The notes beneath the pieces are model-generated. The model saw only the letters and a list, made by a program, of their open reading frames with translations, had not been told where the DNA came from and ran no database searches. From UHGV virus genome UHGV-0324172: DNA of 42,655 nt; one strand, given 5' to 3'. Shown here piece by piece: positions 6,561 through 42,655 of this stretch. How positions within the stretch are numbered: position 1 is the first letter of the stretch; each line of letters starts with the position of its first letter. The DNA is from a virus. The position numbers and the translations under genes are program-made.

Positions 6561-6561
6561 A

Positions 6562-26670: not shown

Positions 26671-26687
26671 ACTTACCCTCCATTCCT

Positions 26688-27774: not shown

Positions 27775-27786
27775 TCCGTTCACTCC

Positions 27787-27990: not shown

Positions 27991-28026
27991 TTCCCCAGCA
28001 CCTCTTTCACTTTTTCTAATATGTCT

Positions 28027-28449
28027 TTACTCCCCTGTGCTTCCGTATGCTCCACGTTCTGATTCTTCATCAAACTCTTGCACCTCCGTTGGCTCTGGTA
28101 ACATTACTGGCGCAATGACTAATTGTGCTAAACGTGTACCTGCTTTAACTACGATTGCCTCATCACCGATATTGTCTGTGATAATTCCAATTTCTTTGTT
28201 ATAAGTGTGATCGATTGTACCTAACGCTACACGTAACTTAGTTTTAAGTGAATTACCTGAACGTGGTCTCACTTGCGCCTCATATCCATATGCTAAATCA
28301 ATTGCAATGTGTGTTGGTACTACGACTGTACTATGTGCTGGAATTGTTGTATCTTCTGCGACATATAAATCTAATCCACTATCTGTTGGATTTGCTCTCG
28401 TTGGCAAGATTGCATTTTCTGATAATAATTTAATTGGTAAAATTCCCAT
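28027..28449 (-). CDS. dut: dUTP pyrophosphatase (trimeric dUTPase)
   Basis: Conserved dUTPase motifs (AILPTRANPTDSGLDLY, RPRSGNSLK, GTIDHTYNKEIGII, RLAQLVI). 140 aa, so it lacks the extra insertion of the longer phi11/80alpha-type Dut. Confidence 0.85.
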   Translation of the reverse strand: MGILPIKLLSENAILPTRANPTDSGLDLYVAEDTTIPAHSTVVVPTHIAIDLAYGYEAQVRPRSGNSLKTKLRVALGTIDHTYNKEIGIITDNIGDEAIVVKAGTRLAQLVIAPVMLPEPTEVQEFDEESERGAYGSTGE

Positions 28450-28668
28450 TTATTGTTCCTCCAAATCTTTTCTTTTATTCCAAATTTTTATAAGTTTTTC
28501 TGCATTATTGGTATGAACGTGCATCCATGTAGACGGTTGTATTTTGCAATTTTTATTAGTACATTCAATTAATAATGTATTAAAGCTATAACGTATATCC
28601 GGTAGACCACCACAAAATGGACATGGTTTAAATTTTGGACTACTCATCACTACCACGCTCCAAATCAC
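28450..28668 (-). CDS. Lar-family-like Zn-ribbon protein (possible restriction-alleviation / anti-restriction function)
   Basis: 72 aa. Motif FKPCPFCGG...C..C characteristic of the Lar restriction-alleviation family. Stop/start juxtaposed with dut. Confidence 0.4.
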   Translation of the reverse strand: MIWSVVVMSSPKFKPCPFCGGLPDIRYSFNTLLIECTNKNCKIQPSTWMHVHTNNAEKLIKIWNKRKDLEEQ

Positions 28669-29098
28669 TTATTTTATATTTTATAGCTTTAAATGCAGTC
28701 AGTAAGTTTCCAAAGTATTCAAACTCATTAGAATTTGATGCAAACTCTTGTCTTGTAGTTAACGTTTCTATTTTGTCTAATGTATATTCTTTTATCTCAT
28801 CAAACACCTCTGCCTTACGTTTAATATCTGCAATATCATTGATGAGTTCGTCGCGTTGTTTTTTAAACGACTTACACTGTTTAAATAATTCATGTATGAG
28901 CATTTCTTCTTTACTCATTACTTTTGATGTATGAGTTTGTAAAGGTGAATAAAAATCTAATATAAGCTGCCAACGTAAATCTACTGATCGTTTTGATGCG
29001 TCCACTAATTCACCAAATACACCGTCGTAGTCTAAATGGTTATTTTTAATATATTCCAATATCTTTTCTTTACTTTTCTCTGTCATCAACCATAGCAC
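28640..29098 (-). CDS. Hypothetical early protein
   Basis: 152-aa ORF. No motif recognised. Confidence 0.4.
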   Translation of the reverse strand: MLWLMTEKSKEKILEYIKNNHLDYDGVFGELVDASKRSVDLRWQLILDFYSPLQTHTSKVMSKEEMLIHELFKQCKSFKKQRDELINDIADIKRKAEVFDEIKEYTLDKIETLTTRQEFASNSNEFEYFGNLLTAFKAIKYKISDLERGSDE

Positions 29099-29471
29099 CG
29101 TCCTTCCAAATTAAAGTCATTGTGCCGTCGTCGTTTAAGATATAATAGTTATAATCACTTCTATCTAAAAACTGTCCGATACTACAATTGAAATTTATAT
29201 TAACTTCATTTAAATTGTTTCTATTGATAGATACTAATTTAGGTATCTCCGTTTCTTTCGTAATTTCTTCTTCAATTTCTACTGTGAAAGTGCATGAATG
29301 CGGGTTATAACTTATAACTTCATTTGCAATTATTTCTGGATCGAATGAGTAGTGTTCTTCGTTGTAATTAAACGTATAACCGTCTAACTCTACTTCCGTT
29401 TCTTCCTGCTCTAATAAATGCTTTAAAAATTCTTTAGGTGTCATCTCTACCTTACGTTTAATCTTTGCCAT
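29070..29471 (-). CDS. Conserved early protein, paralog A (same family as 31488..31862)
   Basis: Shares blocks with 31488..31862: N-terminal M-KIK-KVEMT, FTVEI-EEIT--T-IP, DG-TMTLIWK-G--V-D. Confidence 0.45.
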   Translation of the reverse strand: MAKIKRKVEMTPKEFLKHLLEQEETEVELDGYTFNYNEEHYSFDPEIIANEVISYNPHSCTFTVEIEEEITKETEIPKLVSINRNNLNEVNINFNCSIGQFLDRSDYNYYILNDDGTMTLIWKDGAMVDDREK

Positions 29472-29655
29472 TCCTTACACACTCCCTGTTCCTTTTTATG
29501 TCACACTCACTAACTTTCATCGTCACTCTACTTCCTGCTACCTTAACCACAAAGCCTTTAACACCTAGCTGTCGTAATTCACGCTGTATCTCTGTAGGTG
29601 TCTTGCCTTGTGTGTTGTATTTGTATCGTTGAGATACCGTGTCACTTAGCAGCAT
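29458..29655 (-). CDS. Hypothetical small basic protein
   Basis: 65-aa ORF overlapping neighbours by a few codons. Confidence 0.3.
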   Translation of the reverse strand: MLLSDTVSQRYKYNTQGKTPTEIQRELRQLGVKGFVVKVAGSRVTMKVSECDIKRNRECVRNGKD

Positions 29656-30256
29656 TTATTTTGTCCTTAACTTCTTTTTGTTTGTGTAATAATTTAACAA
29701 AGTTGATTCCTGCTTTAGTCAGGTCGCGATCAGTCGACGTTAAATTAAGTTTGTTAATGCGCACTAATTCTTTACGACTTACCAATGCTATATTTTCTTC
29801 GCTACAGTCTGACCTGTTTTGATTCAAATGTATTAAACAATATCCTTTGGGCACAGGTCCGTGCTTTTGTTCCCATAAATAATGTGTGTATTGTTTCCAG
29901 CATTCGTTTTTTGAACCTCGTTTTTTGATTTTTATAAACTTATAACCGTCAGTAGTGATTTTTATCGTTCCTAAAGGAAATGTGTTATCGGGCTTTTGTC
30001 CTTTCTTAAATTGAGTTTCAGCGCTTCTACCTCTGGAAGGAAAGCTTTTACCTTTGTTCCAAGAAGGCACACCTTTTTTAAACTTACAATCAACCCCACT
30101 TCTTATCCTTTTTCTCGAACAAAACCCTTTCATTTTATCTGTAGTAACATCAGTGCCAAACTCCTTATTAAACATTTCTGTCATTTCTTTCTTAGTTTTA
30201 CCTTTGATGTTATTACGAATATATTTTTCATGCTCATCAGTCCATACATGTCTCAT
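29642..30256 (-). CDS. HNH homing endonuclease (HNH_3 type with N-terminal basic DNA-binding region)
   Basis: C-terminal HNH_3 signature (YLWEQKHGPVPKGYCLIHLNQNRSDCSEENIALVSRKE). Free-standing in the early region, as is common for phage homing endonuclease genes. Confidence 0.7.
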   Translation of the reverse strand: MRHVWTDEHEKYIRNNIKGKTKKEMTEMFNKEFGTDVTTDKMKGFCSRKRIRSGVDCKFKKGVPSWNKGKSFPSRGRSAETQFKKGQKPDNTFPLGTIKITTDGYKFIKIKKRGSKNECWKQYTHYLWEQKHGPVPKGYCLIHLNQNRSDCSEENIALVSRKELVRINKLNLTSTDRDLTKAGINFVKLLHKQKEVKDKINAAK

Positions 30257-30261
30257 GGCTA

Positions 30262-30516
30262 TTACTCTCCTAACAACTTAGGGATTTCTGATTCTGCATC
30301 TAATTTTTCATCTTTAAACTTTTGTGCTTGCAGCACTAAACTGCCATTATTAATGATATTTTGAGCTACTTTAGAAACTGCACTAGATCTTTGTAACTCC
30401 TCTTTTAATTCTTCGCCTTTTAAATCTTCATCGCTTAATCTTTCTAATTGTGCAAATAAATGATTGTTTAAATCTGTCAATGTGTTTCTCATTTCATTAA
30501 CCCTCCCACTTCTCAA
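30262..30516 (-). CDS. Hypothetical small helical protein
   Basis: 84-aa ORF. Confidence 0.35.
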   Translation of the reverse strand: MRSGRVNEMRNTLTDLNNHLFAQLERLSDEDLKGEELKEELQRSSAVSKVAQNIINNGSLVLQAQKFKDEKLDAESEIPKLLGE

Positions 30517-30940
30517 ATGCTCTGTTTAGATACCAACGTGCTTTGTCTAAATCTTCTTTACCGTTCTTACGATTAGCTCGACTTATATACTTGATTGCAT
30601 TACCAATCGCAAATGCTAACTCTGGTTTGTAATCTTTAGTGACTTGCTCTATGAAGTCTATAATTTCCATATCTCCATACGTGTAATGCGACGGGTGGTT
30701 AACCTTGTCATCTAATGTCTTTTTAGTTCCTTCATTTCCATTAGGTAATGAGTAAAAATCATAACAATCATCAATAGTCCAAGTTCTCCCGTCAATTGCT
30801 TCTACATCAGCAACCCATCTATCTATATCAAGACTTGACTGAACTAAACGATAAACATTTTTTATTTGCACTGTAATTTCAACACCGTTAACTTCTTGGA
30901 TTCTGATTCTATCGCCTATAATCAAATCTTTAATGCTCAT
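30497..30940 (-). CDS. Conserved phage protein with HPSHY motif (DUF3310-like)
   Basis: 147 aa containing VNHPSHYTYGDMEIIDFIEQV. Family assignment from memory, not verified. Confidence 0.4.
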   Translation of the reverse strand: MSIKDLIIGDRIRIQEVNGVEITVQIKNVYRLVQSSLDIDRWVADVEAIDGRTWTIDDCYDFYSLPNGNEGTKKTLDDKVNHPSHYTYGDMEIIDFIEQVTKDYKPELAFAIGNAIKYISRANRKNGKEDLDKARWYLNRAFEKWEG

Positions 30941-31296
30941 GATCTAACCACCTTTCTAGGGAAGATGTCATTTTCCATAAGGTGCGTGCACCATTTACCA
31001 CGAGGGTGTTTTTGAGGCACTGTGAATAAATGTGGTTTCTTACGTTTCAATTCTTGTAATCTGCGTTGCTCCATTCTCTCTTTATAACTAGCAATTTCGT
31101 CCTCTTTAGGTTTCAAACTATCCCACTCACTACGTCTTACTCCAATAGGTGCTTCTATTGCATCTTCAAACTTCCAACCAGAAGCTAATCTTTGTCTTAA
31201 GATATCTGAATTAATATCTGCTTTTTTCATTTTCTCTACTACATCTGGTGTAATAGAGAAGTATTTATTTTTAACTCTCATTTTTGTCGCTTCCAT
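30937..31296 (-). CDS. Hypothetical early protein
   Basis: 119-aa ORF. 4-nt overlap with the upstream gene. Confidence 0.4.
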   Translation of the reverse strand: MEATKMRVKNKYFSITPDVVEKMKKADINSDILRQRLASGWKFEDAIEAPIGVRRSEWDSLKPKEDEIASYKERMEQRRLQELKRKKPHLFTVPQKHPRGKWCTHLMENDIFPRKVVRS

Positions 31297-31488
31297 TCAC
31301 TCCACCTCTACCAATTCAATTAGTTTAAAATCTTCGCTCATTAACTCTTTTTCAGGATTCTTACTGATTAAATCTAAAATGCGTTCCTTTTCATCACTTG
31401 CAGTAATTTGATTGTTTACCCAAACTGGATACTTACATCTAACTTTCATTGTTGCTTCGACTGTGACTGTTTCTTCTCTATTAGCCAT
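31297..31488 (-). CDS. Hypothetical small protein
   Basis: 63-aa ORF, tightly packed between neighbours. Confidence 0.3.
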   Translation of the reverse strand: MANREETVTVEATMKVRCKYPVWVNNQITASDEKERILDLISKNPEKELMSEDFKLIELVEVE

Positions 31489-31862
31489 TACTCATCACCG
31501 ACCAATTCGCCATATTTCCAGATGAGTGTCATTGTATTTCCGTCTTTTAACCAGAATTCTCTACTAAAGTCGTCTTTTACTTGTTCAATAGAATTCCCGA
31601 ACCATTGCGTTGCATCATTATCTTGAAATATCTCAAGCATTTCTGGAATTTTTGTATTTTCAGTAATCTCTTCTCCAATTTCTACTGTGAAAGTTTCATC
31701 TTTATCAACTTCATGCTCTATAAAAACTCTTTCGGCCATATCAAAATGCACATAATGACCATCAATATTGCTATAAAACATTTCACTTTTAATTCCATTC
31801 TTCCATGCCCATGTAATCAACTCTGGTAATGTCATTTCAACTTTCTTTTTAATCTTTACCAT
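31488..31862 (-). CDS. Conserved early protein, paralog B (same family as 29070..29471)
   Basis: See paralog A. Shared N-terminal MVKIKKKVEMT and C-terminal GNTMTLIWKYGELV blocks. Confidence 0.45.
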   Translation of the reverse strand: MVKIKKKVEMTLPELITWAWKNGIKSEMFYSNIDGHYVHFDMAERVFIEHEVDKDETFTVEIGEEITENTKIPEMLEIFQDNDATQWFGNSIEQVKDDFSREFWLKDGNTMTLIWKYGELVGDE

Positions 31863-32265
31863 CCTTCATCTTCTCCTTCTTACGTTTTTTGCGTACCTTG
31901 ATTAGTTCTTCATACGTTATCCACTCTTGACCTGTGTATTTAGGCGCTTTACATATCCACGTGAGTGGTACTTCTCTGTTTTGATATCTAAATATCTTTG
32001 ATTTTATTTTGGCTTCTGGAGTAGGCATACCTTTTACATCTATCACTTCGATTAGCTTGCCATCTTTCCATAAAGCAAAATCTGCTACATAGTTAATAGA
32101 TCTGAAATTTTCAAATTTAGGTTGTAATTCGTACTTAGGTTGCAACTCTATATGGTCATATCCCTTACCTAAGTTACGTTCTAAATATTGGTAGTAGTCG
32201 CATTCAATTTTGCTATCGAACACAAAACCTTTATATTCAACTTTTTTAGAATTGTATTTACTCAA
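31849..32265 (-). CDS. Conserved phage protein (DUF1064-like, replication-associated)
   Basis: 138 aa with KVEYKGFVFDSKIECDYYQYL block and a C-terminal Lys-rich tail. Position next to the helicase loader. Family from memory. Confidence 0.4.
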   Translation of the reverse strand: MSKYNSKKVEYKGFVFDSKIECDYYQYLERNLGKGYDHIELQPKYELQPKFENFRSINYVADFALWKDGKLIEVIDVKGMPTPEAKIKSKIFRYQNREVPLTWICKAPKYTGQEWITYEELIKVRKKRKKEKMKDGKD

Positions 32266-32274
32266 AACTCCACC

Positions 32275-32520
32275 TCAAAATAATAATTCGTTAATTGTCA
32301 TCTGTTGTTGCAGTTCTTCTTTTCTGAACAACTTGTGCTTACGTTTCAGTTTTTCTAACTCATCTTTCGTTACTGTTCCTGAAAATGTGTTTCTAAAGTG
32401 TATGCCTGCATAGTTACCTAACTTATAAGTATCTTCTCCTAACGGCGTTACACTGCACATCTCCCAACCGTCAATCTGATATAACGTGTATTGCTTTTTA
32501 AGTCCGTCGATAAGCCCCAT
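32275..32520 (-). CDS. Hypothetical small protein
   Basis: 81-aa ORF. Confidence 0.35.
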   Translation of the reverse strand: MGLIDGLKKQYTLYQIDGWEMCSVTPLGEDTYKLGNYAGIHFRNTFSGTVTKDELEKLKRKHKLFRKEELQQQMTINELLF

Positions 32521-32674
32521 TAGGACACCTCCGTTATCGCCTGTCTGTTACTTTTTTCTTCTAGCTTGTCATTAATTAGCTTGATAAGTTTTTCTTGATT
32601 ACCATTCGCACAATCAAGCATTTTTTGAGCATACACATCGGAACACTCAAGTATTTGTATAACATTCTCTTTCG

Positions 32675-33445
32675 TTACCATGCGTCACGCTCCCTGTAAT
32701 CATCACCTAGCACTTTTACTGTCCTAGCGTTATGTTTCATTCTTGAATTGATCCTTTGCCAATTCATATTTTGATTAAGTTCTTTATCACTAAAATTTGT
32801 AGTGAAGATATTATTCTTTCCAACTCTGTTATCTACAATGCTGAATAGTTTATTCAATGTGTGTTCAGTGTTTTCTACACCTATATCGTCGAGTACTAGC
32901 AAATCTATGTTACTTAGCAGTTGCACAAGTTCGTCAGTCGTTTCTGAAGCGTTCTTGTTGTATGTCGCTTTAATACGCTCCATTAACATTGGAATGTGCA
33001 TAAAAGCCACTGAATATCCTTCGTTTTTAATCGCTTTAGCAATGGCATATGCTATATGGCTTTTTCCGGTACCATATGAGCCTTGTAAGATTAAAGACTT
33101 AGGATTGTCTACCGAGAATGTTTTGACGTACTCTATGGCTGTTTTTTTGGCGTATACTTGCTTTTCGTTTTGTGGTTTGTAATTATTTACTGTTGCATCT
33201 CTTAGCGAACCGTTTACGGTAGATTGATTGAAAATATTATTTATATATTTTTGTTTGCGTTTCTTCTCTGCTTCTTTACCAGCTTGTATCATTGAACAGT
33301 CACAACCATGTCTAAACTCATGCCCGTTACTAAACTTGTAATAGTCGTATGTGTTTCCACACTTATTACATTTAAGGTTGTGTTGTTCTTCTACGATGTT
33401 TTTACTAGGTTTGATATTTCTAGCTAAACTTTCCATTGATTGCAT
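32675..33445 (-). CDS. DnaC/IstB-like helicase loader ATPase
   Basis: Walker A (GSYGTGKSHIAYAIA). Walker B (LLVLDDIG). N-terminal Cys-rich region. Directly downstream of the replisome organiser. Confidence 0.85.
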   Translation of the reverse strand: MQSMESLARNIKPSKNIVEEQHNLKCNKCGNTYDYYKFSNGHEFRHGCDCSMIQAGKEAEKKRKQKYINNIFNQSTVNGSLRDATVNNYKPQNEKQVYAKKTAIEYVKTFSVDNPKSLILQGSYGTGKSHIAYAIAKAIKNEGYSVAFMHIPMLMERIKATYNKNASETTDELVQLLSNIDLLVLDDIGVENTEHTLNKLFSIVDNRVGKNNIFTTNFSDKELNQNMNWQRINSRMKHNARTVKVLGDDYRERDAW

Positions 33446-33457
33446 TTATAATCACTC

Positions 33458-34237
33458 CTAGTCCCAATAACTCTCGTCATACTTCATTCTTTCTAATTGA
33501 TCCATGCCACTCGGTTGTAATTCTTGGTTAAGATAACCCTCAAACTTAGTACCGAATAATGTTTCAGGTCTTAGGTACTTCTCCATGTTTGTGCCTTTCC
33601 ACTCAGCAACTTTGTTATCTATAACTCTTTTAAAGTCATCTATTGAAAAACCTTCATCAGTTCTTGCTCGTATGACTGTTTGATTCTTCTTAGTAGTAGA
33701 TTTGTAATTCTTACCTGTTTGTTGGTTAAGGTAGTCAATTACATCTTTGTAAGGATACGTAGTCGGGTTGCCCGACAATATATTTCCATCAATATAAGTA
33801 CTATCAATATTAGTTAAATCATTATTAATACTATTATTATTAGTAGTTCGCCCTTTTCGGTTTTCCGTTTTTCCGTTTTCCGAAAAACCGTTTGCCGATA
33901 ATCCGTTTTCCGAAAATGGCATTTCGGTAGGCTTTTCATAAACTAAATATTCGTACCCGTTAAAAATGCCGTTGTCAGTCCTTTTTTGTATTCTATGAAC
34001 GTACTTACTTTTTATTAACTCTTGTATGCCACTGTTTATAGATTTCTGACCGTCGTTCATGTGCTTAACCACTTCTGATGTGTATATTTGCCAATTGTCA
34101 GGTCTGCTTAAGAAATAAAGCAGTATCCCTTTTGCTTTGGCGCTCAATTTATTATCAAAAACAAAAGCTTTATGGACTGTTACGAAATCCCCGCTTTCTT
34201 TTATCGTTCTAAATGTTGCCATCTTTCTCACTTCCAT
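33458..34237 (-). CDS. Phage replisome organiser / DnaD-like replication initiator with an internal origin (iterons inside the coding sequence)
   Basis: N-terminal replisome-organiser domain (FVTVHKAFVFDNKLSAKAKGILLYFLSRPDNWQ). Repeated ENG/FSENG peptide encoded by DNA iterons at 33851..33932. Followed by a DnaC-like loader. Confidence 0.75.
   Translation of the reverse strand: MEVRKMATFRTIKESGDFVTVHKAFVFDNKLSAKAKGILLYFLSRPDNWQIYTSEVVKHMNDGQKSINSGIQELIKSKYVHRIQKRTDNGIFNGYEYLVYEKPTEMPFSENGLSANGFSENGKTENRKGRTTNNNSINNDLTNIDSTYIDGNILSGNPTTYPYKDVIDYLNQQTGKNYKSTTKKNQTVIRARTDEGFSIDDFKRVIDNKVAEWKGTNMEKYLRPETLFGTKFEGYLNQELQPSGMDQLERMKYDESYWD
33851..33932. repeat. Candidate phage origin: 7-8 direct iterons with core TTT(T)CCG/TTTCGG, including two copies of TTTTCCGAAAA
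   Basis: Sequence CCTTTTCGGTTTTCCGTTTTTCCGTTTTCCGAAAAACCGTTTGCCGATAATCCGTTTTCCGAAAATGGCATTTCGG lies inside the organiser gene, in frame with a repeated peptide. This ori-in-rep-gene architecture is known from lambda O and many Firmicute phages. Confidence 0.6.
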
Positions 34238-34454
34238 TCAGTAACTCTGTTACAGTAATATTCATGTCATCAGCGATTAATTTAAGCCTTTTAGCATTAG
34301 GTTTTGAAATATCTTTTTCCCACCTACTAACGATACTGTCTGACGCATTGTCGATTAATTCTCCGAACTCTCTCATGTTCAGACCTTTATCTTGTCTGTG
34401 TTGTTTAATACGGCTACCTAATGTCATTACTATCACTCCCCGTACAATAGCCAT
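34209..34454 (-). CDS. XRE-family HTH regulator
   Basis: HTH_XRE pattern (SRIKQHRQDKGLNMREFGELIDNASDSIVSRWEKDISKPNAKRLKLIADDMNITVTELL). Likely start at the internal Met (MTLGS...). Confidence 0.55.
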   Translation of the reverse strand: MAIVRGVIVMTLGSRIKQHRQDKGLNMREFGELIDNASDSIVSRWEKDISKPNAKRLKLIADDMNITVTELLNGSEKDGNI

Positions 34455-34663
34455 TCTGGTGTTGTTTTAAATATGAATGCTATCAATTTTATTTTTTCAA
34501 GATTAGGAATTCTTTTACCTTCTTCCCATTGTTTTATGGAGAAAGGAGATACATACAAGATTGCAGCGAATTCGTTTATATCAAAATTTCTTTGTAATCT
34601 TATTTGTTTGATTCTATTAGCAATTTCTTTCTTGTTTTCTTTAGTTATTACTCTCGAATTCAT
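34433..34663 (-). CDS. XRE-family HTH regulator
   Basis: HTH_XRE pattern (IANRIKQIRLQRNFDINEFAAILYVSPFSIKQWEEGKRIPNLEKIKLIA). Confidence 0.5.
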   Translation of the reverse strand: MNSRVITKENKKEIANRIKQIRLQRNFDINEFAAILYVSPFSIKQWEEGKRIPNLEKIKLIAFIFKTTPEWLLYGE

Positions 34664-35327
34664 TTTTAGCTCCTTTCAACATGGCGTTTAAACGATCATC
34701 AACTTTTATCCAGCTATCTTGTAAGATATATTTTTCATCAAAAGACTTAACGCCTATGTTGTGCTGTTCTTGGTGGTGTCGTCTGCATAAAGCCAACACT
34801 TCATAATCGTAATGCTGCATCTTCTTACGGTTAGCACCACGTCCTATTGCGTAGTGATGTGCAAGGTCAGCGTTTGATTCCCCACATAGTACACAGTTTC
34901 GATTGACCGTTGCCCAGTACAACATAGCTTTATCTCCACTTAGCAATTTGCTCGTTTCTACTCTCATTGGTATTTGGTGATGGAACATAAAAGCTATAAT
35001 CAACTCTATTAATTCACTCGCTATTCTCATTGAACAGTCACGTAAACTTATTTCTTCGTAACCATTCATAATTTCAAGTTCTGCTTGAAACCTTTTCCTT
35101 AGTGATTCCACAGGTTCTCCCCAGTGCAACTCAATATCTCTACATAATGCAAAAATCTTTTTACGTTGTTCTATTGATAATTTTTTGTTATCAGGTACTT
35201 CAACTTCTGCAATGAGTGAGTAACCATTTTCTAATAAGTCGATATGACTTTGTTCTAATTCAACACCAGTCGCAACGACGGAATAAGTACCGTCGTTATC
35301 TCGCTGGTATCTTGTAATACGCTGCAT
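34641..35327 (-). CDS. HNH-motif protein (DUF968-like) of the replication module
   Basis: CVLCGESNADLAHHYAIGRGANRKKMQHYDYEVLALCRRHHQEQH contains a C-x2-C...HH...C-x2-HH-x3-H HNH arrangement. Confidence 0.5.
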   Translation of the reverse strand: MQRITRYQRDNDGTYSVVATGVELEQSHIDLLENGYSLIAEVEVPDNKKLSIEQRKKIFALCRDIELHWGEPVESLRKRFQAELEIMNGYEEISLRDCSMRIASELIELIIAFMFHHQIPMRVETSKLLSGDKAMLYWATVNRNCVLCGESNADLAHHYAIGRGANRKKMQHYDYEVLALCRRHHQEQHNIGVKSFDEKYILQDSWIKVDDRLNAMLKGAKNEFESNN

Positions 35328-35338
35328 TTAATCACGTC

Positions 35339-35893
35339 CTAGAAAGGTAAATCATCATCACTAATTTCAATCGGTCCATTAGCATTGGCAAATGGATTTG
35401 ATTGTTGACTCATTGGCGTTTGCTGTCCGTTGGCTTGTTGTTCACGTTGTTTCATTTCATCAGTTTTAGGTTCGGGTTTATTTACGATTTCGTCACCTTT
35501 GTTCCAAACTTTTACAAAAGATAATCTGACGAAATATTTACCTTGATCTTCGTTAAACTTATTTTTAAGTACGATTGTTCCCATTTTGTTTATTAATCTG
35601 TCTGTATCGAAAGTTAAATCAGGTAAATTAAGTTGAATTCCTAGTCTGCTTAATAATTCTATATATTGTTTTTCTTGGAAGTCTTGTTGGAATGGTGGTA
35701 CGAATTGATTATGTTTGTATTGTTTACCTTCGTTATTTTCAAATACGATAGTGAAATATCTTCCTTCTTTGTCATTAAATTCAACATCTTTAACTTTAAC
35801 TGTGAATTCTCCTGCTCCTAAGAAGTCTCCACCTTTCATAAATGCCTCTTGATTAGTTTCTTTAGTGTGTTGTGCTTGTCCTGTAATTTTCAT
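35339..35893 (-). CDS. SSB-like protein with canonical acidic SSB C-terminal tail (DDDLPF) but atypical N-terminal domain
   Basis: C-terminal Q/N-rich linker ending ISDDDLPF (the client-protein-binding tip of SSBs). Located next to the Sak4-like ATPase, as in Sak4-SSB recombination modules. Confidence 0.5.
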   Translation of the reverse strand: MKITGQAQHTKETNQEAFMKGGDFLGAGEFTVKVKDVEFNDKEGRYFTIVFENNEGKQYKHNQFVPPFQQDFQEKQYIELLSRLGIQLNLPDLTFDTDRLINKMGTIVLKNKFNEDQGKYFVRLSFVKVWNKGDEIVNKPEPKTDEMKQREQQANGQQTPMSQQSNPFANANGPIEISDDDLPF

Positions 35894-35924
35894 AATTTTT
35901 ATACCGTCCTTTATGTTATTTTTG

Positions 35925-35930
35925 TATAAT
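35925..35930 (+). promoter_or_regulatory. Candidate -10 (TATAAT, preceded by TG) for the plus-strand gene 35958..36650
   Basis: TTTGTATAAT at 35921..35930, 28 nt upstream of the GTG start. No convincing -35. Confidence 0.3.
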
Positions 35931-35957
35931 ATATTTAATTCTAATTTTTGAAAGTGA

Positions 35958-36650
35958 GTGATATTTTTGAAACGCGAAATTCGGTTGTTAGATACTCAAG
36001 GAACTTCACACGGAAATTATGCGATAGAATTACCAAATTATTGTCCTTGGTGTAAATCTAAGATCAGTCCTTCTATATTAAGTTCAACTCCATTTGATAC
36101 AAGTAATAGAAATTTTCCAGTATCATTAACTCTACAATGCCCTAGTTGTAATAAGCACTTTTTGCAAACCTATAAGGTTACTTTGTCACCGGCAGGTTAC
36201 ATTAATGAACTTAAAATAGATAATGACAAACCTATGCCTGAAACATTGTTCGAATATCCAAGTGAAATTGATGAAATAAGTAAAGAATTCAAAAATATTA
36301 TTACCCAAAGTTCAAATGCAGAAGCTTTAAAATTTGATCATTTAGCTGGTATTGGATATAGAAAGGCTATTGAATTTCTTGTTAAAGATTATTTGATTAA
36401 ATGCAAAAATAAAGATGAAACTAAAATATCAAACCAACAACTTGGGAAATGCATTTCCGATATTGATGATACAAGAATTAATAATTTAGCACGCGCAGCT
36501 AGTTGGATTGGAAATGATGAAACGCATTATGTTAGAAAACACATTGATAAAGATGTTCAAGATTTAAAGAAATTTTTACACGCTTTAACCGCTTTAGTAA
36601 GTTTAGAAATTAGTATCTCTGAAGCAAGCGAATTTATTAATAAAGATTAA
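35958..36650 (+). CDS. Zn-ribbon (CPWC...CPSC) + DUF4145-like (putative HEPN-type) protein: lone plus-strand gene embedded in the minus-strand early operon. Candidate abortive-infection/defence or exclusion gene
   Basis: Two CxxC pairs near the N-terminus. C-terminal block AGIGYRKAIEFLVKDYLIK...ISDIDDTRINNLARAASWIGNDETHYV matches the DUF4145 pattern (R.A.E.L.KD...I..L...GN...H). Orientation opposite to all neighbours. GTG start. Confidence 0.55.
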   Translation: MIFLKREIRLLDTQGTSHGNYAIELPNYCPWCKSKISPSILSSTPFDTSNRNFPVSLTLQCPSCNKHFLQTYKVTLSPAGYINELKIDNDKPMPETLFEYPSEIDEISKEFKNIITQSSNAEALKFDHLAGIGYRKAIEFLVKDYLIKCKNKDETKISNQQLGKCISDIDDTRINNLARAASWIGNDETHYVRKHIDKDVQDLKKFLHALTALVSLEISISEASEFINKD

Positions 36651-36808
36651 ATATTTTTTTCAAATATAAATGTGCCATTTAAGTCATAATATCTTTCAAC
36701 TTTCCTAATAGGATCTTCGTTTCCATTACCTTTAAGACATATGATTTTAATTAATTTAACTACATCAACTGCTTCTGGTGGTTGATGTGTTATATCTCTT
36801 TTTTTCAT
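36647..36808 (-). CDS. Hypothetical small protein (53 aa), not in the supplied track
   Basis: Manual translation: MKKRDITHQPPEAVDVVKLIKIICLKGNGNEDPIRKVERYYDLNGTFIFEKNI. Strong RBS AAGGAAGG 9 nt upstream. Convergent 4-nt stop overlap (TTAA) with the plus-strand gene. Confidence 0.35.
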   Translation of the reverse strand: MKKRDITHQPPEAVDVVKLIKIICLKGNGNEDPIRKVERYYDLNGTFIFEKNI

Positions 36809-36836
36809 AGTATATTACCTTCCTTATTAGTTATTT

Positions 36837-37628
36837 TTAATTTCCATTTCTGATTGCTTGTACTACGTCCGTAATGCTAGGGTTTACAAATTTCTTATTT
36901 TTAATTGTTATATTGCTTGCATGTCTTATTTTGGTTTCAAATAAGTTAGAGGGTTCAGCGTTAAGTACATACTCATATGACTTTTGTCCGTTTTCCTCAT
37001 GCTCTTCAATTGTCATTCTTGCAAGTACATCTGATTGACTTACAACTGCTTTTCTTATTTGATCTTGTGCCTCAATCGTGATAGTGGGATTAATCGTGCT
37101 GCCTTCATCGTCTTTATCTTTGTTGATACCTTCATGACCGCTTATTGCTAAATGAAATTGATATTGTTCTTGTAACTTAGAAACATATCTGTACATATGC
37201 ACAATGCGTGTAGCACATTCTCCCCAATCATTGAATGTAGGCTTTTTTGTCTTACCATTCATGATGTCGTCAATAGTGATATCGCGTAGTTTCTGTATTG
37301 TTTCAATCACTACTACATCTATTCGTTTTCCGTTTTCTCTTAGTTTCTCAATTACTTGAGGTAGCATTTTTATTACATAAGCAAAATGTTTATAATTTTT
37401 TACTTGTACAACTGCACCATCTTCTGTAACTGTTGTTCCATCTTCATTAATATCAAGCACAAGTGCGTTGTTATCTTTTGTTAAAAAGGTTGTTTTACCT
37501 GTACCGAATTTTCCGTAGATAGCGAATTTATAAAATTTGTTAGCATTTTGTTTGCTGATATCTTTAACCCCTAGTTGAGTTAGGATATCTTGCTCTTGTT
37601 TTTCTTCAGTCATACTCAACCTCCTCAT
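36837..37628 (-). CDS. Sak4-like RecA-fold AAA ATPase (phage single-strand annealing/recombination ATPase)
   Basis: Walker A (AIYGKFGTGKTTF). Walker B-like (VVVIETIQ). Core-only RecA-like size (263 aa). Next to the SSB-like gene. Confidence 0.7.
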   Translation of the reverse strand: MRRLSMTEEKQEQDILTQLGVKDISKQNANKFYKFAIYGKFGTGKTTFLTKDNNALVLDINEDGTTVTEDGAVVQVKNYKHFAYVIKMLPQVIEKLRENGKRIDVVVIETIQKLRDITIDDIMNGKTKKPTFNDWGECATRIVHMYRYVSKLQEQYQFHLAISGHEGINKDKDDEGSTINPTITIEAQDQIRKAVVSQSDVLARMTIEEHEENGQKSYEYVLNAEPSNLFETKIRHASNITIKNKKFVNPSITDVVQAIRNGN

Positions 37629-37890
37629 ATTCAGTTGTTTCAGTTACTTTCTTTTTAATTGCTATGTGTTTTGTCATGTCGATACTCACATCTTCTAGTC
37701 CTGCAAATTCTCTTGCTCTCCGTCTATCTCTTGAATAAGAAGTATCTTCTTCGTTGTTAGGTTTATTAGTGATATACAAGTCAAAAGGAGCGTCTTTCAG
37801 TTTAATTAGATATGTCACTGTTTCTTTCAATGCCAACCACTCCTTTATGCAGCATGTCGATTGTTCTATCCATGACTTTAATTGTTTCAC
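37606..37890 (-). CDS. Hypothetical small early protein
   Basis: 94-aa ORF. Confidence 0.35.
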   Translation of the reverse strand: MKQLKSWIEQSTCCIKEWLALKETVTYLIKLKDAPFDLYITNKPNNEEDTSYSRDRRRAREFAGLEDVSIDMTKHIAIKKKVTETTEYEEVEYD

Positions 37891-38077
37891 TTTGTGTTTC
37901 GCATGATTCTATAGCTTTTCTGAAATCTTTTCTAAGTTCAAAATATCTATCGCACATATCTTCGTAACGTTTGTTTAAATAATCGTAATCGCTTTGCAAG
38001 AAATCTAAATCTGTTTGGCTCTTGATTAGTTGAGAGTATTCTTCTCTAGTCATCTTGACTGTGATTAACTCTTGCAT
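37802..38077 (-). CDS. Hypothetical small helical early protein
   Basis: 91-aa ORF. Overlaps the downstream ORF in another frame. Confidence 0.35.
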   Translation of the reverse strand: MQELITVKMTREEYSQLIKSQTDLDFLQSDYDYLNKRYEDMCDRYFELRKDFRKAIESCETQSETIKVMDRTIDMLHKGVVGIERNSDISN

Positions 38078-38414
38078 TTTCTCTCCTCCACTTGTATATT
38101 TAAGTTGTATATTTTAGTTAGTGTTTGACTGTTACTTGTTGGCGCAAGTTTCAGTCTTTTTTGTTATCTCAAGCCACTTCTCCCAGAAGAAACTGCTGAA
38201 AATAAGGGTTAACATTGAAAATGCTATTACCGTAAAGAAACCACCTCCTAAAAGTAATGTGATAATCATTGCGATAAACATCGTCATGTAGCTTAATAGA
38301 TATTTCATTTATCATCCTCTCCTTTCATTTCTAAAAGTTTTTCGATATATCCTCTCTCTAATGCGAAATCGAACAGCATTTGTTGAATGTGTTCAGGCAT
38401 TACAATCACTCCTT

Positions 38415-39155
38415 TTACTGACCGTTTTCAATCTTTGTTTCTAATTGTTTAATTCTGTACAACGTAGCTTGTGACGGGAACCAGTTAGCGACCATTGACA
38501 GAACATCATCAAAGTGTTTTTGTCTTACGTTTGTTCTTGATGTTGCGCCTGTCATCTTTTTGACTTCTGAATTGATATCTCGGAATAATTCACTTCGTTG
38601 TTTTTGATTTGTAATTGCATGTATCTTTTGGATATGAGCAACTCGTTGATTAATTGTTCTGGATAACAAGTTGTAATCTCCTGTGTCTAACTTTTGATTT
38701 TCTTTCAAATCAATAACATCTGCTTTAACTGTTGCGATTTCTTCTTTAGTTTGTTTTTGTGCGTCGAACATAAGTTGTAATGCGTCCATTGGATCACTAG
38801 GAACTTGATAAGAACCTGTTTTACGAATAGATGGTAATACTTCGTTAGTTATCCAACGTTTGAACGCTTTGGCTTTTTCTTTAATACTTCTATTGTTGCT
38901 TTGTCGTGCTGCGTCTATTACTAATGTGTACAAACCAGATTCATTAATTAAAGAAGCTTTTTGATATCTTCCGGTGCGGTCCTGAATTGGGACTACACGA
39001 ACATCTTCTTTATCGATATGATCTTGTATTGCTTTCGCTCCTCTTGAGTAACCTAAGATGTCAGCCACATCTTTTCCTACAAAGTAAGGTTCGTCGTCTA
39101 TGGATAACGTTCTTACTGGTAATTCTTCAAAATTGAATGTTTGTAATTCGTTCAT
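38415..39155 (-). CDS. ant: Antirepressor (BRO-N / Ant family)
   Basis: N-terminal BRO-N motif (FNFEELPVRTLSIDDEPYFVGKDVADILGY). 246 aa. Directly downstream of cro. Confidence 0.8.
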   Translation of the reverse strand: MNELQTFNFEELPVRTLSIDDEPYFVGKDVADILGYSRGAKAIQDHIDKEDVRVVPIQDRTGRYQKASLINESGLYTLVIDAARQSNNRSIKEKAKAFKRWITNEVLPSIRKTGSYQVPSDPMDALQLMFDAQKQTKEEIATVKADVIDLKENQKLDTGDYNLLSRTINQRVAHIQKIHAITNQKQRSELFRDINSEVKKMTGATSRTNVRQKHFDDVLSMVANWFPSQATLYRIKQLETKIENGQ

Positions 39156-39166
39156 AGTTACGCCTC

Positions 39167-39433
39167 CTAAAATTTCGGTTTTTCCGAATCATCGCCTAAA
39201 AAAATATCATCAACTTTGATTCCTAAAACTTCTGCTAATTTGTGTAAAGTTTTGAAATTAGCGTTCTGAACATTTTTTTGAGTTTCTTCAAGTCTGTAAA
39301 TAGTTCTTTCAGTAACTCCAGAATCCCTTGATAACTTAGCTTTGCTCATTCCTTTAAGTGATCTCCACTGACGAATTGTCAACTTAAGTTTTTCTTTTTC
39401 GTTTACTGTCATTTTGTTTAACACCCCTCTCAA
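39167..39433 (-). CDS. cro: Cro-like XRE HTH regulator (likely true start at the Met at 39412)
   Basis: HTH (LKGMSKAKLSRDSGVTERTIYRLE). Divergent from the cI-like gene. The RBS GAGAGGGG precedes the internal ATG rather than the first one. Confidence 0.7.
   Translation of the reverse strand: MRGVLNKMTVNEKEKLKLTIRQWRSLKGMSKAKLSRDSGVTERTIYRLEETQKNVQNANFKTLHKLAEVLGIKVDDIFLGDDSEKPKF
39174..39188. promoter_or_regulatory. Operator-like inverted repeat TTCGG-TTTTT-CCGAA between cro and ant
   Basis: Same half-sites and spacing as the TTCGG-TAATT-CCGAA site at 39457..39471 in the cI/cro intergenic region. Confidence 0.45.
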
Positions 39434-39578
39434 TCAAGTTAACTACATGATAACATTTCGGTAATTCCGAAGTCAATACTTTTATTTCATTTTTTTCGAA
39501 ATTATTTTCGGAAAATCTGTTGTACATTTCCGGAAATAATGTATAATATAGGTAGAAACTTTCCAGGAGGTACAACAA
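39434..39578. promoter_or_regulatory. Divergent cI/cro switch region: candidate promoters and operator palindromes
   Basis: Plus-strand promoter: -35 TTGTAC (39520..39525), 17-bp spacer, -10 TATAAT (39543..39548), RBS AGGAGG. Minus-strand promoter: -35 TTGACT (revcomp of 39471..39476) and -10 TATCAT (revcomp of 39446..39451). Palindromes: TTCGGTAATTCCGAA (39457..39471), TTTCGAAA (39493..39500), TTTTCGGAAAA (39506..39516), ATTTCCGGAAAT (39527..39538, between the -35 and -10). Confidence 0.6.
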
Positions 39579-39893
39579 ATGTTTAGTCAAAACCTAAAAT
39601 ACTTAAGAGAGAAAAAAGGAATGGAACAGCTGGACCTTGCAAAAGCATTAGGTAGAAAAAGTGCATCAAGTATTAGCGAATGGGAAAAAGGCAAATACAC
39701 ACCTAAGATGAAAACCTTAAATGAAATTTCTAAAATATTTAACGTGAACATTGATGATTTAATGACAAAAGATTTATCTAACAATCAAAAAACTGAAACG
39801 GTAGCAGCACATTTGGATTATTCAGATTTAACAGAGGAGGAACAAAAAGAAGTAGAGAATTTTATTGATTACATAAGAAACAGAAGAAAGTAA
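39579..39893 (+). CDS. cI-like XRE-family repressor (ImmR-like)
   Basis: N-terminal HTH_XRE (LREKKGMEQLDLAKALGRKSASSISEWEKGKYTPKMKTLNEISKIFNV). Followed by an ImmA-like protease gene. Confidence 0.75.
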   Translation: MFSQNLKYLREKKGMEQLDLAKALGRKSASSISEWEKGKYTPKMKTLNEISKIFNVNIDDLMTKDLSNNQKTETVAAHLDYSDLTEEEQKEVENFIDYIRNRRK

Positions 39894-39906
39894 GGGGAGA
39901 TAATAA

Positions 39907-40377
39907 GTGGGTAAATATGAAGATTTGATGATTAAATACGACCATTTACCTATTACAGAAACTAAATATATGCCAGACTTCATGTCCGGTCTGTATTTAG
40001 ACGGGGAAATATTTATCAATGATAATAGAAGTGTTAGGCAGAAGTTAGAAACTTTAGCAGAAGAAATAGCTCATCATAAGTTAACACACGGGAATATAAC
40101 AAACAGTGATGAGTACAACAATCGTAAGTTTGAGAATTATGCTAGACGTTACGCTAAAGAAACAGTGATTTCTTTAGACGGTTTAATAGAAGCACACAGA
40201 CGAGGAATCAACAGTCTTTATGAATTATCAGAGTTTTTCGAAGTTACGGAAGAATATGTTTTAGATTGTTTGAATCATTATAAAAGTAAATATGGTTTGT
40301 CTGTGATTCACAATGATCACACGATACATTTTGAACCATTAAGCGTTATCAAAAATAAAAGGAGAGATGCAGAATGA
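39907..40377 (+). CDS. ImmA/IrrE-family metalloprotease (anti-repressor protease)
   Basis: HEXXH-type motif (EEIAHHKLTH). 156 aa. Immediately downstream of the XRE repressor, the ImmR/ImmA arrangement. Confidence 0.7.
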   Translation: MGKYEDLMIKYDHLPITETKYMPDFMSGLYLDGEIFINDNRSVRQKLETLAEEIAHHKLTHGNITNSDEYNNRKFENYARRYAKETVISLDGLIEAHRRGINSLYELSEFFEVTEEYVLDCLNHYKSKYGLSVIHNDHTIHFEPLSVIKNKRRDAE

Positions 40378-41189
40378 AAAAGGTTATATTTTTTATTTTA
40401 AGTTGTTTGTTGGTACTAGGAGCATGTAGTAATAGCGGTAATAAAAGTACTACCGTTAGCGAAAATAAACCTCAATTTAAAAATGATACATTAGTATTAG
40501 ATCAAGCTGTTTTATATATTAAAGACGCGTTTATTATTAAAGATAAAGAATCTGGAAACAAAGAAATTGCTATCAAATATGAGGTTAAGAATAAAACTAA
40601 CAAAGAAGAAATAACACCGTCTAGCGTATGGACTGCAGGTGTAACAGTTAAACAAGATGAAGGAAGTACAGAAAGCGAATTAGACACAGGTATGACAGTT
40701 GTAGATAATGGTAAATACAAAGAATGGTTAGAACATTATAACGATACAATTAAAAAAGGCGAAAAAGCTAAAGGTTTAGCTACTTATCAATTAAAGAACG
40801 ACAATAAAGTAGTATTACATTTCTCTAAAGGTATTAGTGGAGATAAATTAGGTACTAAAGAATATGACTTATCTAAACTTAAAACTGTTGATTATTCATC
40901 AAACAAAGATTTAGAAAACACTTATCAAGAATCTTCTGCAAATGAAAACAATACAGATAACAACCAGTCTAGCGAAGTTGCTAATAATACTGAAAGTAAA
41001 GACACAAACACTAACGTACAAAGTAACACTCAAAAACAAGGAAATACTAATAAAGAACAAACACAACAATCTGCACCTAGAGAACATAGTGGCGGACACC
41101 CTTCTGCTTTCGGTGGCGAAGATGTTCCTGTAGGTACTGAAAAAGTTGATGATCAAGGAGAAAGTTATATAGACGCAACAGGTGAATAA
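40374..41189 (+). CDS. Prophage lipoprotein (DUF4352/DUF5067-like), candidate superinfection-exclusion factor
   Basis: Signal peptide with lipobox (LVLGACSNSG). Beta-rich central domain. Low-complexity N/T/Q-rich C-terminus. Located between the repressor cassette and the integrase. Confidence 0.65.
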   Translation: MKKVIFFILSCLLVLGACSNSGNKSTTVSENKPQFKNDTLVLDQAVLYIKDAFIIKDKESGNKEIAIKYEVKNKTNKEEITPSSVWTAGVTVKQDEGSTESELDTGMTVVDNGKYKEWLEHYNDTIKKGEKAKGLATYQLKNDNKVVLHFSKGISGDKLGTKEYDLSKLKTVDYSSNKDLENTYQESSANENNTDNNQSSEVANNTESKDTNTNVQSNTQKQGNTNKEQTQQSAPREHSGGHPSAFGGEDVPVGTEKVDDQGESYIDATGE

Positions 41190-41237
41190 AAAATGGGTAG
41201 CATGCCTACCCTTATTATTTTTTTACTTTTTTAAGGG

Positions 41238-42617
41238 GTGATGAATTATGAACGTAGCTATTTACGTTCGTGTCAGGTCAGTACATTAGAACAAAAAGAA
41301 CATGGATATTCTATTGAAGAACAAGAAAGAAAGCTCAAATCATTTTGCGAGATAAACGACTGGAGTGTATCAGACGTATTTATCGACGCTGGTTTCTCTG
41401 GCGCTAAGCGTGACAGACCGGAATTACAACGTATGATGAATGATATTAAACGGTTTGATTTAGTTTTAGTGTATAAGTTAGACAGGCTTACACGTAATGT
41501 GCGTGATCTACTTGATTTATTAGAGGTATTCGAACAGAATAACGTAGCATTCAGAAGTGCTACTGAAGTTTATGATACATCTACAGCTATGGGTAGACTG
41601 TTTGTTACGTTAGTTGGTGCTATGGCAGAGTGGGAAAGAGAAACCATTAGAGAGCGTGTTATGATGGGTAAACGCGCAGCGATTAAACAAGGTATGATAC
41701 TCACACCACCACCCTTTTATTATGATCGTGTAGATAACACTTACATTCCTAATGATTATAAAAAAGTAGTTTTATGGGCATACGACGAAGTGATGAAAGG
41801 TAATAGTTCAAAAGCTATAGCTAGAAAATTAAACGATTCAGATATACCACCTCCTAATGGCAAAAGGTGGGAAGATAGAACAATAACGAGAGCGCTAAGA
41901 AACCCTATAACAAGAGGTCATTATACTTGGGGAGATGTATTTATAGAAAACTCTCACGAGCCTATTATTACCGAAGAAATGTATCAACAAATAAAAGAAA
42001 GATTAGAAGAACGAATCAATACAAAAATAGTCAGTCACGTATCAGTGTTCAGAGGTAAATTTATTTGCCCGAGATGTGGTGGCACATTAACAATGAACAC
42101 AGCAACAAGAAAGAGAAAGAAAGGGTATGTTACTTATAAAACATATTATTGCAACACATGTAAGACTAAAAAACAAAGTTTCGGTTTTTCAGAGAATGAA
42201 GCATTGAGAGTGTTTCGTGATTACCTATCTAAACTAGACTTAGATAAATATGAAGTAAAGACAAAACAAAAAGACGATGTCGTTACTATTGATATAGACA
42301 AAATCATGGAACAACGTAAAAGGTATCATAAATTATATGCTAAAGGGTTAATGCAAGAAGAAGAATTATTTGAATTGATTAAAGAAACAGACGAAACAAT
42401 AGCAGAATATGAAAAGCAAAAAGAATTAGTACCCAGAAAATCACTAGATATAGATAAGATAAAAAAATTTAAAAATGCATTATTGGAATCATGGAAAATA
42501 TTCTCGTTGGAAGATAAAGCAGATTTTATTAAAATGGCTATTAAATCTATTGACATAGATTATGTAAAACTTAAAAACAGGCATTCTATCAAAATAAATG
42601 ATATAGAATTTTATTAA
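41238..42617 (+). CDS. int: Large serine recombinase (integrase); N-terminus disrupted by a 5-bp tandem duplication (possible pseudogene or sequencing error)
   Basis: Resolvase-type catalytic domain (VSTLEQ...YSIEEQ...VYKLDRLTRN), recombinase domain and Zn-ribbon (CPRCGG...CNTCK) plus C-terminal coiled-coil. The canonical MNVAIYVRVSTLEQ N-terminus is split across two frames by GTCAGGTCAG at 41272..41281. The track ORF starts at a GTG and reads MMNYERSYLRSCQVSTLEQ. Confidence 0.75.
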   Translation: MMNYERSYLRSCQVSTLEQKEHGYSIEEQERKLKSFCEINDWSVSDVFIDAGFSGAKRDRPELQRMMNDIKRFDLVLVYKLDRLTRNVRDLLDLLEVFEQNNVAFRSATEVYDTSTAMGRLFVTLVGAMAEWERETIRERVMMGKRAAIKQGMILTPPPFYYDRVDNTYIPNDYKKVVLWAYDEVMKGNSSKAIARKLNDSDIPPPNGKRWEDRTITRALRNPITRGHYTWGDVFIENSHEPIITEEMYQQIKERLEERINTKIVSHVSVFRGKFICPRCGGTLTMNTATRKRKKGYVTYKTYYCNTCKTKKQSFGFSENEALRVFRDYLSKLDLDKYEVKTKQKDDVVTIDIDKIMEQRKRYHKLYAKGLMQEEELFELIKETDETIAEYEKQKELVPRKSLDIDKIKKFKNALLESWKIFSLEDKADFIKMAIKSIDIDYVKLKNRHSIKINDIEFY

Positions 42618-42623
42618 CTTATG

Positions 42624-42639
42624 TACGGAAGTATAGACA
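42624..42639. repeat. Right terminal inverted-repeat arm TACGGAAGTATAGACA, candidate att half-site (P arm), 6 nt after the integrase stop
   Basis: Reverse complement (one mismatch) of 1..16. Confidence 0.5.
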
Positions 42640-42655
42640 CTCGATTAATATTTAA

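Follow-up and report, generated by a model that had tools for sequence, protein, structure and literature searches.

The DNA analysed here (the window) is a stretch of 42,655 nucleotides (nt) from the virus genome UHGV-0324172, which belongs to a temperate phage of Staphylococcus epidermidis. Inside its early lytic operon lies an accessory cassette made up of an opposite-strand gene for a zinc-ribbon plus HEPN protein (ZnR-HEPN) and a small convergent gene, ORF53. We hold with moderate confidence that this cassette is a prophage moron, in which a RAZR-like sensor RNase expressed in the lysogen is combined with a partner gene on the lytic strand. This explanation fits the orientation of the gene, the conservation of its GNDETH motif and the 96% linkage between related phage genes and the small gene better than any rival explanation.

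The accessory cassette and its phage

The cassette was delimited by comparison with the closest phage, PG-2021_93, in which the SSB and Sak4 genes adjoin and the sequences flanking the insert are 95% and 93% identical to those of the window. The cassette and its surroundings comprise the following features.

35912..36825, no strand assigned: accessory cassette of 914 nt, an insert relative to PG-2021_93, with junctions read directly
35903..35911, no strand assigned: left copy of an imperfect 9-nt direct repeat, ACCGTCCTT, complement of the SSB ribosome-binding site (junction against the empty site)
36817..36825, no strand assigned: right copy of the imperfect 9-nt direct repeat, ACCTTCCTT, complement of the ORF53 ribosome-binding site (junction against the empty site)
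35925..35930, plus: TATAAT −10 element with TG directly before it (aligned cassettes)
35950..35958, plus: conserved ribosome-binding site, GAAAGTGAG, 8–9 nt upstream of the TTG start
35967..36650, plus: zinc-ribbon and HEPN (DUF4145-like) gene, 227 amino acids from its probable TTG start (map of open reading frames and homologue alignment)
36757..36792, plus: terminator-like hairpin followed by a U-rich tract, within the first codons of ORF53 (fold energy and terminator scan)
36647..36808, minus: ORF53, gene for a 53-amino-acid small beta protein of the phrog_14088 family, convergent with the ZnR-HEPN gene and sharing a 4-nt TTAA stop overlap with it
35339..35893, minus: SSB-like gene, named through its homologues, with no Pfam match
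36837..37628, minus: Sak4/AAA_24 gene

The initial annotation had described a lone plus-strand open reading frame (ORF) of 230 amino acids among the minus-strand genes between 246 and 39433, placed between the SSB-like and Sak4-like genes and ending in a TTAA stop overlap with a small minus-strand ORF, and all of these observations were confirmed. It had also called for a comparison of the locus among related phages. The SSB and Sak4 genes are adjacent in ASZ22RN, 3MRA, phi77 and phiNM1/4, as they are in PG-2021_93; the gene is thus not a universal core component, and its reading as a core replication gene was rejected because these sites are empty. The cassette also has a lower G+C content (27%–29.5%) than its flanks (32%–38%).

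The signals on the plus strand follow the order of a self-contained transcription unit. The TATAAT hexamer was retained in all 10 aligned Staphylococcaceae cassettes, even where the surrounding bases differed. The hairpin (ΔG −16.5 kcal/mol, z −4.8), which lies approximately 110 nt past the plus-strand stop and was called by the terminator scan, is preserved in cassettes of Staphylococcus and of Macrococcus type, where substitutions on one arm are compensated on the other (for instance, CAAC/GTTG to CGAC/GTCG). The GTG start assumed initially is probably not the true one: when read from GTG 35958, the frame spans 35958..36650 on the plus strand and encodes 230 amino acids, but this codon falls inside the conserved ribosome-binding site, the majority of homologues are 227 amino acids long and begin at a TTG equivalent to 35967, and in one cassette (L012) a stop codon closes the GTG frame. 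The true start is therefore probably TTG 35967, as judged from the alignment.

The −10 element, ribosome-binding site, coding sequence and terminator hairpin on the plus strand thus make up the anatomy of a moron, that is, an insert that varies in presence and is equipped with a promoter and terminator of its own, though the TATAAT here has no −35 element. The initial suggestion of a moron-like accessory gene was accordingly borne out by the empty site in related phages, the conserved −10 element, ribosome-binding site and hairpin, the low G+C content and the lysogeny orientation. Classical prophage morons and superinfection-exclusion genes, such as lambda rexAB, lactococcal sie2009 and ltp of Streptococcus thermophilus, are mostly located in the lysogeny module or at the genome ends. 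The ZnR-HEPN gene resembles them in being accessory, in having its own promoter and terminator, in its lysogen-type orientation and in its variability among related phages. Unlike them, it lies head-on inside an early lytic operon, where lytic transcription must cross it.

This placement recurs in other phages. In staphylococcal phages the cassette always occupies the Sak4–SSB junction, despite flanking identities ranging from 28% to 100% for SSB and from 43% to 99% for Sak4, and the same arrangement was found in an integrated prophage of chromosome CP121509. In other genera it sits at other positions. In SM1, phiARI0460-1 and phiRS7, each homologue runs antisense to early genes, and among 80 IMG/VR loci the upstream neighbours of the ZnR-HEPN gene were nearly always on the opposite strand.

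With regard to the phage as a whole, nt 1–25000, the structural and lysis half, are 100% identical to S. epidermidis phage vB_SepiS-phiIPLA7 (JN192401). The match to this phage covers only 39% of the early and lysogeny half (nt 25001–42655), at 96% identity, which suggests that the early region was recently exchanged as a module. The early region is a mosaic that matches none of the deposited phages in full. In a greedy ORF map, all credible genes from 246 to 39433 (ca. 60 genes) lie on the minus strand except for the ZnR-HEPN gene; the remaining plus-strand ORFs there (25791–25985 and 34213–34470) are short and overlap minus-strand genes. The early lytic operon on the minus strand includes genes for a cro-like helix-turn-helix (HTH) protein, a Bro-N antirepressor, DUF2483, Sak4/AAA_24, an SSB-like protein and HNHc_6. 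The plus-strand block at 39579–42617 encodes four proteins, namely, a cI-like HTH protein, an ImmA/IrrE-type peptidase, a DUF5067 protein and a serine-recombinase integrase. Because the ZnR-HEPN gene lies on the same strand as this block, it shares the orientation of the cI-like repressor and integrase genes and opposes the early lytic operon. Separately, two tandem genes for small Cro/cI-type HTH-like proteins (81 and 76 amino acids) were noted at 34209–34663 on the minus strand, between a replication-protein gene and an HNH gene; the plus-strand ORF 34213–34470, which overlaps both, is probably spurious.

The ZnR-HEPN protein and its likeness to RAZR

The reading frame is not a chance one, given that the protein has 677 homologue clusters (E ≤ 1e-3), mainly in Firmicutes and often named DUF4145, and matches the hidden Markov model (HMM) of PHROG 1305, labelled 'DNA binding protein', over positions 12–220 of 226 (E 9.8e-40). 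An AlphaFold2 model (predicted local distance difference test, pLDDT, 90.4) consists of a beta-rich N-terminal domain, in which the four invariant cysteines lie, followed by a helical C-terminal domain, and three parts of the protein can be placed on the window.

35967..36218, plus: N-terminal beta-rich Cys4 zinc-ribbon domain, amino acids 4–87 (invariant cysteines, model strands)
36267..36641, plus: C-terminal helical HEPN-fold domain, amino acids 104–228 (predicted model)
36510..36527, plus: GNDETH motif with invariant H190 (family alignment)

The two CxxC pairs noticed initially, C29/C32 (36042–36053) and C61/C64 (36138–36149), were found to be invariant in 32 homologues. The zinc-ribbon domain as a whole varies more within the family than any other part, and the HEPN domain is conserved. 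The proposed match to DUF4145 held in part: the protein itself scored 21.2 bits against Pfam DUF4145 (PF13643; E 3e-4, amino acids 129–207), below the gathering threshold of 23.1 bits, but its relatives pass this threshold, with homologues including P0022, P0029 and P0032 carrying PF13643, and DUF4145 is the NCBI name for many of them. In the model, the C-terminal domain adopts the four-helix up-down bundle of HEPN proteins; the values tabulated with the model were 11.2 for 2hsb, 10.5 for the sacsin HEPN domain, 10.0 for 4nqf, 9.1 for Csm6, 8.5 each for a HEPN toxin and AbiA, 8.4 for HepT and 8.2 for LsoA. PDB sequence searches with the protein alone and with the family profile returned only zinc-finger noise, and an NCBIfam search of the protein gave nothing useful. 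DUF4145 is classed within the HEPN superfamily, and the link to defence drawn in the initial annotation is correct (PMC3710099).

A protein that binds nucleic acids and regulates the lysogeny or replication of the phage itself would suit the 'DNA binding protein' label of PHROG 1305 and RefSeq, the frequency of nucleic-acid binding among zinc ribbons and the location of the gene in the replication and recombination module. However, an experimental basis for the label was not found, close relatives replicate normally without the gene, the fold is that of HEPN and the position of the gene differs between phages. We thus regard such a regulator as very unlikely.

RAZR (PD-T7-4) from Escherichia coli UMB1727 (PDB 9y9c; Zhang et al., Nature 2026, PMC13017515) is 219 amino acids long and joins a Cys4 zinc ribbon to a DUF4145/HEPN domain. 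It polymerises around phage portal or Erf-like rings and then cleaves single-stranded RNA nonspecifically, resulting in abortive infection; R146 and H154 are essential, and alanine at R146 abolishes defence (PMC13017515). It is an experimentally proven abortive-infection RNase and has been described as a single-gene system (PMC13017515). The ZnR-HEPN protein shares with RAZR a length of approximately 220 amino acids, the order of N-terminal Cys4 zinc ribbon, linker and C-terminal DUF4145/HEPN domain, a G-N-x3-H motif with invariant histidine, a sensor domain far more variable than the HEPN domain and a location on mobile DNA. It differs from RAZR in that its gene lies antisense inside a phage early operon and is accompanied by a conserved small convergent gene, and in that its subfamily has T, A or S at the position of R146, beside an invariant tryptophan.

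The likeness runs through gp7 of Streptococcus phage SM1. PHROG 1305 contains both the ZnR-HEPN protein and SM1 gp7, and hhalign aligned the A1 profile with gp7-type proteins over 143 columns that span both CxxC pairs and the HEPN motif (E 1.9e-4). Like the ZnR-HEPN gene, gp7 lies antisense in the early region and has a convergent small beta partner (gp6). Unlike the ZnR-HEPN protein, gp7-type proteins keep R-x7-H (77 of 79), score above the Pfam DUF4145 threshold (54.6 bits) and are recognised by the PD-T7-4 HMM. A second SM1 protein, gp14, is nearer to the ZnR-HEPN protein (37% identity) and shows neither R-x7-H, nor a passing score for Pfam DUF4145, nor a PD-T7-4 match. SM1 thus carries a canonical copy (gp7) along with a copy of the ZnR-HEPN subfamily type (gp14). 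Phage-encoded relatives in IMG/VR comprised at least 532 loci of the ZnR-HEPN type and at least 305 of the canonical type.

The small convergent partner gene

The small minus-strand ORF noted initially exists and proved to be no incidental neighbour but a conserved partner, found with such genes in hundreds of phages. ORF53 matched the phrog_14088 HMM (E 1.5e-11); in SM1 its homologue is gp6, the small ORF that converges on gp7. Its AlphaFold2 model (pLDDT 90.8) is a three-stranded beta meander, and searches with the small beta protein gave no Pfam match and no structural match. The family comprised 443 clusters by its profile and 2916 representatives at 50% identity. Because the family motif additionally matches WD40 repeats in multiple stretches, the protein looks like a single propeller blade; a reading of the motif as an Rhs/YD repeat was dropped, the large multi-stretch matches being WD40-repeat STAND NTPases.

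Linkage was strongest for the canonical genes. A convergent ORF of the beta family was found at 74 of 77 evaluable phage loci of gp7 type (21 of 23 clusters at 90% identity). For the ZnR-HEPN subfamily, a small ORF converges on the 3' end of the gene in 75 of the 80 IMG/VR loci and belongs to the beta family in 44 (28 of 46 clusters at 90% identity), and none of these 80 loci has a beta-family ORF away from the 3' end. A further 79 loci were collected starting from the small protein, with a narrower alignment as the query. Here, 53 of the small genes adjoin a gene of the ZnR-HEPN subfamily and two adjoin canonical PD-T7-4-type genes. In streptococcal phages, the cI-divergent promoter is followed first by the small gene and then by the HEPN gene in antisense. 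No beta ORF was present within 5 kb of 23 chromosomal RAZR loci, mainly from Proteobacteria. At some enterobacterial RAZR loci (L246–L249, L251, L254 and L255), an ORF of approximately 490–540 amino acids was observed in several genera about 1.6 kb upstream, on the RAZR strand; this could be a conserved neighbour of RAZR or belong to the mobile element that carries it.

Other antisense genes with small overlapping ORFs were also observed. In SM1 (L003), three antisense genes lie in one early region (3953–7139), and a small convergent ORF overlaps each of their 3' ends (gp7/gp6, gp11/gp10 and gp14/gp13). Gp11 belongs to phrog_3634, which has no known function, and gp10 and gp13 have their first ca. 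16 residues in common and different tails, which are read antisense to different partner genes. In CP121509.1 (L272, 9095–9625), an antisense DUF2513 gene of 120 amino acids on the lysogeny strand is overlapped at its 3' end by a convergent ORF of 58 amino acids. Antisense morons ending in small overlapping ORFs may thus be a general layout. Where the overlap is longer (38–67 nt; L016, L017, L034, L061 and others), the small proteins carry Ser/Ala-rich C-terminal tails (...ASSIANS, ...ASSTASS), which are probably not functional because they are read from the antisense of the last codons of the HEPN gene. One orphan small beta gene (L121, 2407–3108) has another zinc-ribbon protein upstream on the opposite strand (a 233-amino-acid ORF with CxxC pairs) and no RAZR-like gene downstream.

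These data bear on whether ORF53 is functionally tied to the HEPN gene at all. It could be an ordinary early gene or a 'landing pad' for insertions, as orphan small beta copies occur in early operons, gp13-like small ORFs pair with unrelated antisense genes and small ORFs are overlapped by other antisense genes too. Against this stand the 96% linkage with PD-T7-4-type genes in clusters down to approximately 50% identity, the partnership of the same small family with two divergent RAZR-like subfamilies and the finding that in none of the 79 loci did a small beta gene lie beside an unrelated convergent gene. On balance, an unlinked ORF53 appears somewhat unlikely.

The tight conservation of the pair, with overlapping 3' ends, and the movement of the cassette as one unit between phage backbones would also suit a toxin–antitoxin-like addiction module. 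In such a module, a latent HEPN toxin would be countered by the small beta protein or by an overlapping antisense RNA, stabilising the pair or the prophage rather than defending the host, and HEPN toxins with antitoxins are common (PMC3710099). Yet the two genes are convergent and belong to different transcription programmes, in contrast to the co-transcription expected of type II toxin–antitoxin pairs; the partner is missing in 45% of the ZnR-HEPN subfamily; and overproduced RAZR was not toxic (PMC13017515). An addiction module is therefore improbable in our view.

Proposed function and its implications

If the cassette is a RAZR-like moron, the early operon would be repressed in the lysogen and the ZnR-HEPN gene would be transcribed from its own −10 element. 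The protein would remain idle until a superinfecting phage produces a multimeric protein (in the case of RAZR, the portal or an Erf-like ring) that is bound by the variable zinc ribbon, whereupon the HEPN domains would cleave RNA and the infection would be aborted. Upon induction, early transcription bound for SSB and the downstream genes would cross the ZnR-HEPN gene antisense and silence it. The same early transcript would yield the 53-amino-acid beta protein, encoded just upstream, which might neutralise the RNase, such that the phage's own rings would fail to trigger the sensor (self-immunity). Because of this layout, lytic growth would silence the ZnR-HEPN gene and produce the small protein together. 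We advance tentatively, as a possibility, that the small protein neutralises the sensor and spares the phage's own rings, with the orphan copies serving as counter-defence genes; caution is warranted since 45% of the subfamily lack the partner, the comparison with chromosomal loci is confounded by phylum and other antisense genes overlap small ORFs. The wider conjecture, in which phage RAZR-type sensors are two-gene units whose dedicated, propeller-blade-like beta inhibitor from the lytic strand allows a prophage to keep a ring-sensing suicide RNase and still complete lytic growth, orphans in other phages act against RAZR and the W-x-GNDETHY-x-RK subfamily is an active HEPN nuclease whose catalytic site was rebuilt without the arginine, strikes us as rather unlikely.

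Several results weigh against the proposed function. Whereas the cassette anatomy, gene orientation, protein fold, family relationships and linkage statistics were established directly, we infer the function: expression in the lysogen and the defence role are deduced from gene orientation and likeness to RAZR. The TATAAT claimed initially as the gene's own promoter is present and conserved, but it has no −35 match upstream, where the SSB ribosome-binding site occupies the position, and it was not called by a two-hexamer consensus promoter scan, in which promoter-like sites were rarer than in shuffled sequence. The partnership is not obligatory for the ZnR-HEPN subfamily, and strict 1:1 pairing was rejected, because 36 of its 80 genes lack a small beta gene within 4 kb, having other small ORFs or none, and approximately 20 of the 79 small beta genes are orphans in early operons. 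The absence of the small gene from chromosomal RAZR loci is confounded by phylum (Proteobacteria versus Firmicute phages). As SM1 gp11 and the DUF2513 gene of L272 also end in small overlapping ORFs, tight packing may explain part of the pattern.

The remaining points concern kinship and catalysis. The PADLOC model for PD-T7-4 (PDLC04109), which matched SM1 gp7 (1.5e-15), a phage protein from locus L157 (2.5e-18) and a RAZR fragment (1e-57), gave no match at E ≤ 1 to the ZnR-HEPN protein or SM1 gp14. Likewise, the RAZR structure 9y9c was not found by the ZnR-HEPN family profile and was reached through SM1 gp7 only (E 6.5e-7). R146 of RAZR aligns opposite S182 of the ZnR-HEPN protein (H-8), and the equivalent residue in 202 family members is T in 84, A in 66, S in 23, V in 18 and R in only three. 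The HEPN catalytic motif R-x4-6-H (R-x7-H in DUF4145/RAZR) is thus absent from the ZnR-HEPN protein, with the histidine invariant and the canonical arginine missing in approximately 99% of the 202. Since the PD-T7-4 model and the arginine comparison fail while hhalign and PHROG 1305 link the protein to the gp7 type, we assign it to a divergent sister subfamily of the RAZR-type proteins carried by phages and do not equate it with RAZR. The subfamily signature is W-x-G-N-D-E-T-H-Y-x-R/K-K, with a nearly invariant tryptophan just after the R146-equivalent position. Either the catalytic site may have been reconfigured around the invariant H190, N186, D187, Y191 and K194, or the output may be unlike that of RAZR.

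A catalytically altered look-alike could instead act as a phage regulator or as a decoy, for example by poisoning RAZR-type proteins of the host or prophage through co-assembly, as a form of counter-defence. The subfamily-wide loss of the arginine, the fact that RAZR works only as higher-order oligomers, so that a defective subunit could be dominant negative, and the presence in SM1 of a canonical copy and a ZnR-HEPN-type copy are compatible with such a role. The gene is, however, oriented as lysogeny genes are and not as early lytic genes, and the very strong conservation of GNDETHY..RK argues for an active rather than a dead site. A decoy therefore seems to us a distant prospect. HEPN families with the histidine and without the arginine do exist, as the c2405 family shows ('conserved H but lacks R'; PMC3710099).

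Among other known DUF4145/HEPN defence proteins, BxaP, which is associated with BREX (PMC10799925), Ishtar, an anti-plasmid system (bioRxiv 10.64898/2026.07.06.735840), and the c2405 family resemble the moron proposed here in employing a DUF4145-type HEPN domain in a conflict system. All three differ from it in their partner domains (HEAT-like, a beta/alpha C-terminal domain and AbiTii) and genomic settings, and none has the arrangement of a zinc ribbon with a small convergent partner. A prophage moron with a RAZR-like ZnR-HEPN protein is of a known kind. In the literature that could be searched, three features seem not to have been described before: the subfamily without the arginine, its fixed antisense position within early operons and the conserved small gene convergent with it.

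The locus is one of a large set of RAZR relatives encoded by Firmicute phages, in which an antisense position in the early operon, abutting a small lytic-strand gene, is the fixed layout. An inhibitory partner would account for the escape of a prophage from its own ring sensor and would be the first candidate anti-RAZR protein. The highly conserved HEPN site without the arginine offers a testable case of alternative HEPN chemistry or output. For work on staphylococcal and streptococcal phages, including therapy and host range, the family represents a candidate exclusion gene of wide distribution, which databases at present annotate as 'DNA binding protein' or 'hypothetical'.
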